Assembly: GCF_000341895.1 (NCBI RefSeq)
Contig: NC_020409.1
Location: forward strand, 540,001 to 572,000
Reading direction: 5' to 3'
DNA: 32,000 bases
Source of the DNA: Pseudodesulfovibrio piezophilus C1TLV30
Lineage (GTDB): Bacteria; Desulfobacterota; Desulfovibrionia; Desulfovibrionales; Desulfovibrionaceae
Each line of letters starts with the position of its first letter. Position 1 is the first letter of the stretch. Position numbers and translations under genes: made by a program. Of the stretch, positions 5,686 to 29,910 are shown piece by piece. The notes under the pieces are model-generated. The model searched no databases and was not told the origin of the DNA. It saw only the letters and a list, made by a program, of their open reading frames with translations.

Positions 5686-6480
5686 ATGATCAATATTTCA
5701 AAAATAAATAAAGCCTTCCACCGAGGCGATGTTAATGAAGTGACTGCATTGAATGAAGTCAGCCTTAAGGTCAATAAAGGGGACTTTGTTACCATTATTG
5801 GTTCAAACGGAGCAGGTAAATCTACGTTTCTCAACGCGATTGCTGGCTCTTTTACACTTGACACTGGGACTATAACACTGGCGGAACATGATATAACAAA
5901 ATGGGCAGAGCATAAACGGGCATCGCTCATAGGACGAGTATTTCAGGACCCTCTTCTTGGAACTTGTGCCGGAGCAACGATAGAACAAAATTTAGCCATG
6001 GCCCTCAAGCGAGGGCAACGCCGAGGGTTGCGTTTTGGCGTCAAAAAAAAGGACCGTGAGTTCTTTCAGGAAAAACTCTCTGTTCTCAAGTTGGGGCTTG
6101 AAGAGAGACTCAAAACGCAAACAGGTCTTCTGTCTGGAGGGCAAAGACAAGCGTTAACAATGCTTATGGCTACCCTTGTCCGCCCACACCTTTTATTACT
6201 CGATGAACATACGGCAGCCCTAGACCCAAAAACGGGTGGCATGATTCTCGATTTAACAGAAGAAATAGTTTCATCTCTCAACCTGACAGCCTTAATGGTC
6301 ACTCATAATATGAACCAGGCCATCACAATGGGAAATAGACTAATTATGTTTCATCGCGGTGAAATTGTTCTTGATATTTCCGGTGATGAGAAAAAAAATC
6401 TCAAGGTCGAAGATCTTCTGCTGCGGTTTTCACAGCTGCGTGGTGAAGCAGAAATTTCCGACCGCATGTTATTGTGCTAG
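5686..6480 (+). CDS. ABC transporter ATP-binding protein (COG1101 type)
   Basis: Walker A GSNGAGKST, signature LSGGQRQ, Walker B LLLLDEHTAALD. AGGAG lies 6 nt upstream of the ATG. There is a 2-nt gap from the permease gene. Confidence 0.9.
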   Translation: MINISKINKAFHRGDVNEVTALNEVSLKVNKGDFVTIIGSNGAGKSTFLNAIAGSFTLDTGTITLAEHDITKWAEHKRASLIGRVFQDPLLGTCAGATIEQNLAMALKRGQRRGLRFGVKKKDREFFQEKLSVLKLGLEERLKTQTGLLSGGQRQALTMLMATLVRPHLLLLDEHTAALDPKTGGMILDLTEEIVSSLNLTALMVTHNMNQAITMGNRLIMFHRGEIVLDISGDEKKNLKVEDLLLRFSQLRGEAEISDRMLLC

Positions 6481-25873: not shown

Positions 25874-26990
25874 ATGACCGAATACGCAGAACTCAAGGCC
25901 CTTTCAGCAGAACTCGTTAATAAATTTTCCTCCCTTTGGGGGCGACTTTGACTACGCTGAAACAGTGTCGCGACTCGATGAGATCGAGAAGGAACTCTCA
26001 AAACCTGGCGCTTGGGATAAGCCAGAGAATCTTACACCATTTCTAAAAGAGAAAAGCCAACTCTCTGCTAAACAAAACATGTATGATGATTTGGCAGAGG
26101 CAAAGGAAGATCTAGATGCTTGGCTGGAATTGGCGCATGAGGATCCGGACGAAGAAGCGTTAGATGCTTTGGAAGCTCAAGTCGATCTTTTTAAAACTCG
26201 ACTGGCGAGTACTGAAATGGCAACAATGTTCGCTTTTGAACATGACAAGACAAATGCCATCCTAGAGATTCATCCTGGCGCTGGTGGTGTCGAATCACAA
26301 GATTGGGCAGAGATGCTCCTGCGGATGTATACTCGCTATGCTGAACGCAAAGGATTCAAGACCACACAACTTGATTTTCAACCTGGCGATGAAGCTGGGA
26401 TCAAAAGTGTTACACTCCAAATTGAAGGCTTATATGCTTATGGTCTCTTGAAAGGAGAGGCAGGGGTACACCGCCTCATCAGAATCTCACCATTTGATTC
26501 TTCCGGCAGGAGACACACTTCTTTTGCATCGGTTGATGTTTATCCTGATATGGACGACGATATCGAGATTGAAGTCAAAGATGAGGATTTAAGGATTGAT
26601 ACCTTCAGATCAAGCGGACCTGGAGGACAAAGTGTTAATAAAACCAGCTCGGCTGTTCGCATAACTCACCTTCCGACAGGTATCGTTGCGCAATGCCAAA
26701 ATGAAAAATCGCAGCACAGAAATAAAGCAACAGCTTTACGCTTGGTCAAAGCTCGCCTCTACGAACTCGAATTAAAGAAAATCGAGGATAGTCGCAGGCA
26801 AGAATATGAGTCAAAGGAATCCATCGCTTGGGGAAGCCAGATACGAACCTATACATTACAGCCGTATCGACTGGTCAAAGACCATCGATCCAATAGTGAA
26901 ATAGGGAATGTTGATGCTTTTCTTGACGGAGATTTGGACGAAATGATCAGAAACCACCTACTCTATCTTCATGCACACGGAAAATCATAA
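25874..26990 (+). CDS. prfB: Peptide chain release factor 2, expressed via a +1 programmed ribosomal frameshift. Frame 0 covers 25874-25948 and frame +1 starts at 25950.
   Basis: Frame 0 reads MTEYAELKALSAELVNKFSSLWGRL-TGA. The +1 frame continues DYAETVSRLDEIEKEL.... SPF (ISPFDS) and GGQ (GPGGQS) motifs are present. The junction parallels E. coli ...LRGYL/DYDAKKERLEEV. Confidence 0.9.
25938..25952 (+). promoter_or_regulatory. prfB recoding site: internal SD-like GGGGG, a 3-nt spacer, then the slippery CTT TGA C
   Basis: TGGGGG CGA CTT TGA C has the same architecture and spacing as E. coli AGGGGG TAT CTT TGA C. Confidence 0.85.
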
Positions 26991-28693: not shown

Positions 28694-28778
28694 TAGTAAG
28701 AATTTTAGTAAGATTCATTTTTATTTACCTAGGCTCCACACTAGAGCTTGTACCCACTCAATGATTCAGGGGGAAACC

Positions 28779-29054
28779 ATGAACAAGAGCGAATTGATCA
28801 AGGCTCTGTCCGAACAGAAAAAAATGCATGTAGACGAAGCGACTAAAATTGTAGGAGCTTTCGTTGATTCAGTGAAAGAAGCTTTACTTCGAGGAGATCG
28901 TGTCGAAATCCGAGGATTTGGAAGCTTCAAAATCAAAGAATATGAAGGCTATACCGGACGCAATCCAAAAACCGGAAGCGTTGTCCAGGTCCGTCCTAAA
29001 AAACTGCCCTTCTTCCGTCCGGGAAAAGAGTTGAAAGAATTTATCAACGACTAG
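28779..29054 (+). CDS. Integration host factor / HU family DNA-binding protein (IHF beta-like)
   Basis: MNKSELIKAL..., RVEIRGFGSF, GRNPKTGSVVQV, LPFFRPGKELKEFI. AGGGGGA precedes ATG 28779, so the track's 28761 start is rejected. Confidence 0.85.
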   Translation: MNKSELIKALSEQKKMHVDEATKIVGAFVDSVKEALLRGDRVEIRGFGSFKIKEYEGYTGRNPKTGSVVQVRPKKLPFFRPGKELKEFIND

Positions 29055-29055
29055 A

Positions 29056-29910
29056 ATGCGTTGGCTCTCATATTGGCTGCTCGTTGCGGCATTATTTGTT
29101 GTCTCTGGCCCTGCGCACGCGAAACAACCAGTTTTAACTATTCTCTACTCGGCAAATACGTATGGCACAACACGGCCATGCCCCTCTTGAGGAGGTAAAA
29201 CCCTTGGTGGTATAGCTCGGCGAGCTACGTATTTTTTGGATGTCAAGAAAGCGCAAACTTCATGTATTCTTGTCTCAGGTGGATGGGAATTTATGTCGCC
29301 AAGTGGGGAAAAGCCTCCTTTGCAACAACTTGCCATTCTTACCAAAGCATTCGATTTAATGAAGTACGATGTTGCTCTTCTCGCACAGCAAGAAGAGGAA
29401 TTATTTGATTCGACAGTTTTAGATACAACGCGAAAATCCGCTCTCAAGGCTCCTGTCTCAACTATGACCATGAGTAATGGTATGAGAATTGTCTTTTTGA
29501 GATTGCCTCCATTGCCCCCAGGACAAGATCAGCCTTCCCAAAAGATAATAGATAGCATTACAGGCCTTATAAAAACGGAACGCACTCAAGCAAAACTCAT
29601 TGTCGCCCTTTCTGACTGGGGATGGATCGGTGAACGAGAATACTTGGCCGCTAGCCCCGAATTAGTGCCGGATTTACTTATGGGAAGTGGTCTTGGTTCT
29701 GGTGTCAATGGACGTGTGGAGGCTGATGGACGATGCATATGGGTACGCCCCTACGACAAGGGACGAACGATCAATGAAATACAGATTTTTTCTTGGCCAC
29801 GTCAAAATGAACTGAATAAATGGACGCAAACAGAACATTTCAGATCAATATCAATAGGCCTGAATGATCAATATAAAGATAACCCCGCTGTAGATGAAGT
29901 CCTGCGATAA
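29056..29910 (+). CDS. Candidate secreted selenoprotein with TGA 29188-29190 read as Sec in a C-P-S-U motif, on a 5'-nucleotidase/metallophosphatase-like scaffold lacking metal ligands. Alternatively a pseudogene, or two separate ORFs.
   Basis: ATG 29056 lies 1 nt after the ihf stop and is in the same frame as the track ORF 29236-29910. The 44 sense codons upstream of the TGA encode a canonical signal peptide (MRWLSYWLLVAALFVVSGPAHA|KQ) and then LTILYSANTYGTTRPCPS-TGA-GGKTLGGIARRATYFLDVKKAQ. Only one stop interrupts the frame. The track start is a TTG with no SD. A hairpin lies 25-39 nt downstream of the TGA. Confidence 0.55.
29213..29227 (+). promoter_or_regulatory. Possible bacterial SECIS-like stem-loop downstream of TGA 29188
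   Basis: TAGCTC-ggc-GAGCTA (5-6 bp stem, G-rich apical loop). The apical loop lies about 31-33 nt after the U of the UGA, within the range usual for bacterial SECIS elements. Confidence 0.3.

Follow-up and report, generated by a model that had tools for sequence, protein, structure and literature searches.

A two-domain "UshA-like" selenoprotein family with a CxU motif (COG0737 / NF041198) has been known since the Global Ocean Sampling (GOS) metagenome study (PMC2398784). A 2026 review of prokaryotic selenoproteomes lists an UshA-like family 2 with a CxxU motif and one selenocysteine (Sec), for which the only source given is "GenBank annotated", and places the Thermodesulfobacteriota among the organisms richest in selenoprotein genes (PMC13188914). 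In the literature searched we found no publication on the function, fold or selenocysteine insertion sequence (SECIS) of UshA-like family 2, and BSepDB makes no mention of it. In this paper we analyse a gene of Pseudodesulfovibrio piezophilus C1TLV30 which, judged from its sequence and that of its relatives, very probably encodes a genuine Sec-containing member of this family. The gene lies at 29056..29910 on the forward strand of a stretch of 32,000 nucleotides (contig NC_020409.1, positions 540,001 to 572,000), which we call the window, and all coordinates below are those of the window. Its candidate Sec codon is an in-frame TGA at 29188..29190.

The reading frame opens with the ATG at 29056, 1 nt past the TAG (29052-29054) of an HU/IHF-like gene, and is common with that of a TTG at 29236 (both coordinates are 1 mod 3), from which the open reading frame (ORF) lists start the gene. 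It spans 284 codons plus a stop at 29908-29910. The conceptual translation reads MRWLSYWLLVAALFVVSGPAHA up to the predicted signal peptidase site, then KQPVLTILYSANTYGTTRPCPS, then the TGA as codon 45, and continues as GGKTLGGIARRATYFLDVKK; the TGA is the sole internal stop. The precursor begins with a signal peptide, which is followed by the motif C42-P-S-U45 and a C-terminal portion of 239 residues. The original prediction had described this as a gene missed by the ORF track, with a start just past the HU/IHF gene and in frame with the listed ORF. Coordinates and translation agree with that description, and the arrangement as one 284-codon coding sequence recurs in 21 distinct orthologous sequences.

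Family membership and coding of the in-frame TGA

For the searches with hidden Markov models (HMMs) Cys was put in place of the stop. The readthrough protein scores 296.6 bits with the NCBIfam equivalog model NF049981, "UshA-like (seleno)protein family 2", whose cutoff is 140, and the alignment joins residues 27-283 of the protein with positions 1-261 of the 262 in the profile. The same model is matched by 40 of 40 Sec and Cys forms tested. Pfam gives no match for the readthrough protein or for 40 family members. The model of family 1, NF041198 (PCGU), gives the window protein a weak score of 45.8 bits, far below its cutoff of 275, and over profile positions 7-111 only. Over its full length the window protein belongs to a family that is curated already; it does not found a new one. 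The one statement in the original prediction which proved wrong as to identity is that no described selenoprotein family fits the protein, because NF049981 is matched over its full length and the CxxU family is listed in PMC13188914.

The deposited records of the strain predate or miss the NF049981 model and contain the protein in shortened form. CCH47778.1 ("conserved protein of unknown function") has 205 aa and starts at the ATG at 29293, while WP_157871247.1 ("hypothetical protein") has 224 aa and starts at the TTG at 29236, which gives the shortened ORF 29236..29910 of the ORF lists and RefSeq. The lack of a Shine-Dalgarno sequence before this TTG had been pointed out at the outset, and we find none in the window before the TTG, before the ATG at 29293 or before the ATG at 29056. 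The full-length window protein was not found in a collection of 15 billion proteins, and all 61 close homologues from a large protein collection are 185-237 aa long, with a query coverage of no more than 82%. Gene callers shorten UshA-like family 2 proteins systematically. A profile search of 1.84 billion representatives yielded 273 relatives; among the best 150, about 124 are without the N-terminus, as miscalled Sec forms are, and about 25 are full-length (264-338 aa). Sec forms appear to outnumber Cys forms in this family.

Evidence that the TGA encodes selenocysteine comes from the orthologues. Our main alignment holds 18 sequences, made up of 6 Pseudodesulfovibrio genome loci and 12 further distinct metagenome sequences, and with the distant forms L028, L034 and L035 there are 21 distinct Sec forms. 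All 21 have TGA at this column, and no Cys codon is found there in the close clade. In the orthologues the TGA stands in the context (R/K/Q)PCP(S/T)-TGA-GG(K/R/H)TLGG, which in the window is P-C-P-S-U-G-G around codon 45, and upstream of it are a signal peptide and the conserved block (Q/E)PVL(T/S)I(L/F)Y(S/T)(A/S)NTYG. The Cys42 codon of the CxxU motif (TGC, 29179..29181, forward strand) is kept in all Sec and Cys forms examined bar L035, which has Leu. Each of the roughly 25 full-length relatives among the best 150 has a signal peptide and carries Cys at the Sec column, for example in PCPVCGG, PCPTCGN or PCAVCGA. One of these Cys forms, P0066, has the same gene neighbourhood as the window (CorC, Lnt, release factor 2, GGDEF, ParA-like, HU, the gene itself, DapA and DHH) and is therefore a positional orthologue of the window gene, with Cys for Sec. 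The check for CxxC at the aligned columns and for signal peptides in homologues, which had been proposed together with the CxxU reading, thus came out in favour of it. It is almost certain that the in-frame TGA is a genuine codon for selenocysteine.

Another possibility is that the TGA is a true stop. It would then separate a 44-residue secreted peptide from a cytoplasmic protein beginning at the TTG at 29236 or the ATG at 29293, or else mark a pseudogene or a sequencing error. The public annotation covers the downstream part only, and in L035 a 44-aa ORF has been called separately, which is what would be expected from a true stop. But the TGA recurs in 21 independent sequences, and the coding constraint does not end at it. 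In the 18 sequences, substitutions at codon positions 1/2/3 number 865/372/1808 over the 72 nt before the TGA and 648/315/1736 over the 72 nt after it. The third-position bias is alike on both sides, which means the same coding constraint, and hence purifying selection, in one frame up- and downstream of the TGA. Moreover, the stretch between the TGA and the TTG at 29236 (GGKTLGGIARRATYF) belongs to the best-conserved parts of the protein and is homologous to the GGxARRAT helix of 5'-nucleotidases, and the first strand of the fold, beta-1, is encoded upstream of the TGA. The Cys forms run uninterrupted through this region, and neither internal start has a Shine-Dalgarno sequence. We regard a true stop as extremely improbable.

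It is also conceivable that the UGA is read through without Sec-tRNA, either by near-cognate insertion of Trp or Cys or under an alternative genetic code. One source indeed gives Trp for the homologous TGA of L028 (GCA_905333185.1, CAJOTH010000715.1). In this locus the gene lies at 270-1151, its DNA has TGA and the deposited protein P0094 has Trp (PCPSWGS); the contig was evidently translated by its source with a code in which TGA is Trp, hiding a selenoprotein. Against readthrough of this kind, TGA ends 3 of the 27 long ORFs of the window, and the autoregulatory CTT-TGA-C site of prfB, encoding release factor 2, requires TGA as a stop, so the standard genetic code applies. The aligned residue of the homologues is always Cys and never Trp, and the SECIS-type hairpin described below goes with TGA and is lost with TGC or TGT. 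Readthrough without selenocysteine seems very improbable to us.

The SECIS-type hairpin

Downstream of the TGA the original prediction had noticed a stem-loop, TAGCTC-GGC-GAGCTA, at 29213..29227 of the forward strand. It has a 6-bp stem (29213-18 / 29222-27) and a GGC apical loop (29219-21), which begins 28 nt past the UGA. The published consensus of the bacterial SECIS (bSECIS) has an apical loop of 3-9 nt, an upper stem of 4-16 bp, a gap of 16-37 nt between UGA and loop and a minimum free energy (MFE) of at most -7.5 kcal/mol (PMC13188914). A G is found within the first two positions of the loop, which is mostly G[G/U]N (PMC13188914 Fig. 2). All 21 Sec forms have the predicted hairpin in one register, with a contiguous stem of 4-9 bp, a spacing of exactly 28 nt and a G[G/U]N loop (GGC in 15, GUC in 5 and GGA in 1). 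In this respect the hairpin at 29213-29227, as a predicted structure, fits the published bacterial SECIS model.

In a general MFE recoding test the window hairpin did not stand out, and in its place we used tests that are specific to the register and to covariation. In the 18-sequence alignment 96.3% of the cells of the stem are paired, compared with 26-56% when the partner is slid. Three hairpin pairs are changed on both sides, for example window U:A versus C:G and A:U versus G:C, and these changes are at synonymous third positions. The covariation score was equalled in just 2 of 500 shuffles, so that the covariation check envisaged for the orthologues gave a positive outcome. Counted from the loop, the in-register stem of 6 Cys forms is interrupted after 0-4 pairs; all Sec forms retain it.

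Other RNA folds in this region are less convincing. RNAfold gives a possible helix close to the UGA (GAGG.G / CCCUU, 29189..29205, forward strand), of which all five pairs are present in 13 of 18 orthologues; its columns are nearly invariant, and for this reason it has no covariation support. A second structure that had been suggested for the TGA itself, in the triloop of CCTCT-TGA-GGAGG, forms in 1 of 18 sequences, that of the window, and was rejected as not conserved. With Rfam we found only chance-level matches, both in the window at the gathering threshold and in 29120-29320 at E <= 10, and none of its curated bacterial SECIS models matches.

Fold, export and gene context

To describe the fold we modelled the Cys-form orthologue P0066, which is 32% identical to the window protein, with AlphaFold2 and an alignment of 44 sequences. 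The model has a predicted local distance difference test (pLDDT) of 92.6 and a predicted template modelling score (pTM) of 0.89, with the lowest values over the CxxC loop (~69). In a Foldseek search against the PDB the top matches are 5'-nucleotidases (E. coli c4898, UshA, human CD73, T. thermophilus 2z1a and snake-venom enzymes) and the thiosulfohydrolase SoxB; the entries 3ivd, 6xug, 2z1a, 1ush and 2wdc have E values of about 1e-12, with TMq of 0.6-0.66 and TMt of ~0.38. The low TMt means that the protein equals the N-terminal metallophosphatase domain alone. Mre11-type phosphoesterases follow at ~1e-6. No thioredoxin fold is among the 50 Foldseek matches listed, and no thioredoxin-family HMM is matched. 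The relationship to 5'-nucleotidases can also be found by sequence, since the family profile detects 5h7w with E = 7e-5 through the GGxARRAT helix; a single-sequence search of the PDB returned only noise (uPAR). According to the model, the fold is that of the N-terminal alpha/beta-sandwich domain of 5'-nucleotidase, UshA and SoxB, and the C-terminal substrate-binding domain is absent.

The metal motifs of this domain are lost, as HMMER alignments to 2z1a and 5h7w show. Motif I, HTNDTH in 5'-nucleotidases, is SANTYG in the window protein (DxH to N-x-Y); motif II, DAGD, is SGGW (GD to GG); and motif III, GNHE, is AQQE. Neither Metallophos nor 5_nucleotid_C of Pfam matches any member tested. With the metal motifs replaced and these matches lacking, phosphoesterase activity is unlikely, and UshA-like family 2 is very probably not a working phosphoesterase. 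The loop that carries the CxxU motif follows directly on the first strand, at the place where metal ligands are normally supplied by motif I.

In the window protein a short, basic n-region comes first, then a hydrophobic core (~14 residues) and then an A-x-A site (AHA before K), so that the predicted signal peptide is M1-A22 (MRWLSYWLLVAALFVVSGPAHA, 29056..29121, forward strand), with a signal peptidase I site before K23. A hydrophobic core is present in all orthologues, together with a small-x-A site directly before the conserved (Q/E)PVL block. This bears out the Sec-type signal peptide originally read upstream of the TGA, and the protein is predicted to be exported. Many orthologues begin with MRR, as a Tat signal might; this was rejected because the RR is not conserved (RW in the window, RC in L016 and VR in L005).

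The upstream gene (28761..29054, forward strand, stop TAG 29052-29054) encodes a DNA-binding protein of the HU/IHF family, with a match of 107 bits to the Pfam family Bac_DNA_binding. The protein is identical to WP_157871245.1 (97 aa, from ATG 28761), and CCH47777.1 (91 aa, from ATG 28779) is in the same 90% cluster. The RpoD, MnmG and DapA of the window are likewise identical to proteins of P. piezophilus C1TLV30. A GGGGGA 4 nt upstream of ATG 28779 favours the shorter form, and ATG 28779 is likely to be the true start. Of 20 loci, 19 have the selenoprotein ATG at a distance of -1 to +1 nt from the HU stop (TAG-A-ATG or TAATG), without a Shine-Dalgarno sequence. We infer that the selenoprotein is likeliest to be translated by termination-reinitiation coupled to the HU gene. 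Within the Desulfovibrionaceae the order HU, the gene itself, DapF (not in every locus) and DapA is kept in Sec forms and Cys forms alike.

A second TGA recoding event of the window, of a well known kind, is found in prfB (25874-26990, forward strand), which has a canonical programmed +1 frameshift. Its ATG at 25874 opens MTEYAELKALSAELVNKFSSLWGRL, which ends at the frameshift site CTT-TGA-C (25946-25952) with a Shine-Dalgarno-like GGGGG just before it, and the +1 frame carries on as DYAETVSRLDEIEK. As a result of the frameshift, the ORF list gives only a 341-aa fragment starting from a GTG at 25965.

Possible roles of the selenol and relation to known systems

These observations can be combined into a proposal of how the protein is made and what it might do. 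Ribosomes ending on the HU gene would start at ATG 29056 across the TAG-A-ATG junction, and SelB with Sec-tRNA(Sec) would bind the 29213-29227 hairpin and direct Sec to the UGA at 29188. The precursor would be exported via the Sec translocon and cut by signal peptidase I after AHA22, to give a mature periplasmic protein of ~262 residues without phosphoesterase function. In it, Sec45 as nucleophile and Cys42 as resolving partner, joined in a selenenylsulfide, might form a redox centre on the loop of the vestigial active site. Such a role in periplasmic selenol/thiol redox chemistry is our leading suggestion, and a tentative one, with a chance not far short of even. It is supported by the CxxU/CxxC spacing, which is conserved in all members examined but L035. 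It is also supported by a distant Cys form, L031 (GCA_001483165.1, LNQE01000259.1, 1376-6936), which is found amid thiol-redox and metalloid-type genes in the order ArsR-type helix-turn-helix (HTH), ArsP_1 permease, DGC domain, thioredoxin, the gene itself, Thioredoxin_3, DsbD_TM (DsbD/CcdA), rhodanese and MauE/DoxX. The L031 neighbourhood is unlike the Desulfovibrionaceae context. As another candidate for a resolving cysteine we considered Cys227 (DGRCIWVRPYDKG, ~29734-29736), which is invariant in the close Pseudodesulfovibrio Sec clade and replaced by Thr or Ser in distant Sec and Cys forms. Since Thr stands at this position in the distant Sec forms L028, L034 and L035, Cys227 was rejected as a partner linked to Sec.

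There are several points which weigh against this interpretation, some of them against the redox centre and others against the selenoprotein as a whole. Firstly, in L035 (2845-2979, TGA 2977-2979) the motif is NPLRA-TGA-GGKTLGG: Sec and the hairpin are retained and Leu stands for Cys42. It is the only such case seen, and it means that a selenenylsulfide between Cys42 and Sec45 cannot be universal. Secondly, the structural model is of a Cys homologue with 32% identity, and its CxxC loop is the least confident part (pLDDT ~69). Thirdly, the Desulfovibrionaceae gene context (HU, DapA) is uninformative on function. None of selA, selB, selC and selD is found in the 32-kb window, where there is also no tRNA or Rfam match, and the literature searched has nothing direct on Sec machinery or a [NiFeSe] hydrogenase in P. 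piezophilus.

The hairpin also has its weaknesses. In the window it reaches -6.0 kcal/mol alone, short of the consensus limit of -7.5, and -9.6 for the UGA plus 57 nt, so that it is borderline on the energy criterion. Of the 20 other Sec forms, 19 reach the limit with the hairpin alone and L028 (-6.2) only with flanks. That the window hairpin is the weakest of the Sec forms can be explained by the AT-rich genome (43.6% GC). More seriously, 34% of the synonymous recodings of the window peptide are as stable as the window hairpin, because the codons of Ala-Arg-Arg-Ala (GCN-CGN-CGN-GCN) are self-complementary. For the stem-loop of the original prediction this means that its position, SECIS fit and covariation hold, and that its presence is weaker evidence than it appears. 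Finally, L025, the GC-rich Cys-form locus of P0066, also forms a hairpin, a different and shifted one. It lies over the GGLGRRAT codons (~6133-6190) with a shift of ~3 nt and a GCCG loop, and its stability exceeds that of 95% of synonymous recodings. A fossil SECIS left after a change from Sec to Cys would be one explanation for it, an effect of GC-rich codon bias another.

The loss of Cys42 in L035 raises the question whether the selenol acts in a redox couple at all. The same selenoprotein might instead use Sec45, with or without Cys42, to bind or transfer a metal, metalloid or chalcogen in the periplasm. The selenol would then replace the lost dimetal site of the UshA/SoxB scaffold, and candidate ligands are As, Hg, Cu, Se(0) or selenide, and persulfide sulfur. 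A form with Sec and without Cys42 speaks for a nucleophile or ligand that acts alone. One of the closest folds is that of SoxB, an enzyme for protein-bound thiosulfonate sulfur, and one family member weakly matches the SoxB model. The ArsR-type HTH, ArsP_1 permease, DGC domain and rhodanese of the L031 locus point in the same direction. However, L031 is a single locus, in which thioredoxins and DsbD are also present. The spacing of CxxC/CxxU kept in all other members is the classic redox spacing, although metal-binding CxxC motifs exist too, and besides C and U no metal-site residues are evident. We therefore think of a metal or chalcogen role as possible but doubtful, and keep the redox role of Sec45 and Cys42 as the working interpretation.

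For the annotation of the strain the consequence is a correction: CCH47778.1 and WP_157871247.1 should give way to a predicted exported selenoprotein of 284 residues. No new category is opened by this protein. For the catalogued family the analysis adds a predicted single-domain UshA/SoxB fold whose metal ligands are lost, the placement of Sec in the loop after the first metal-binding motif, a defined candidate SECIS with a G[G/U]N triloop and 28 nt spacing, and a probable translational coupling to the HU gene. It can serve as a starting point for asking what a periplasmic selenol does in sulfate reducers. A more far-reaching idea, which we put forward as speculation and consider rather unlikely, is that a dead domain of the 5'-nucleotidase/SoxB type has had its vestigial dimetal pocket rebuilt round Sec into a new periplasmic catalytic or ligand centre, such as a sulfur, selenium or metalloid site, with its expression in Desulfovibrionaceae slaved to that of the abundant HU. 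Such a rebuilt pocket and HU-slaved expression are not described in the literature searched. If true, the conserved coupling would tie a periplasmic selenoprotein to the gene of a nucleoid protein.

Compared with known systems, the window protein is closest to NF049981 itself. It shares the CxxU motif, the 262 positions of the profile compare with 262 residues of the predicted mature protein, and most of the named members come from the same genus as the window; there is no difference at the family level. Its homology to family 1, NF041198, is weak and extends over the N-terminal ~100 residues, in which the Sec region lies. Family 1 is likewise a 5'-nucleotidase-related selenoprotein with Sec just past the first beta-strand, but it has ~519 residues, two domains and a CxU motif, in contrast to the 284 residues and CxxU of the window protein. 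UshA, CD73 and SoxB are the best structural matches and are exported, as the window protein is predicted to be, and in the venom 5'-nucleotidase 5h7w the corresponding loop has a Cys at the Sec/Cys column. These enzymes have metal ligands and a C-terminal domain, whereas the window protein is without both. The selenoproteins of thioredoxin fold with CxxU or UxxC motifs (DsbA-, Trx-, Prx- and AhpD-like) have in common with it the CxxU motif with Cys homologues, some are exported, and a thiol/selenol redox role is presumed for them. Their fold, however, is wholly unlike that of UshA-like family 2.

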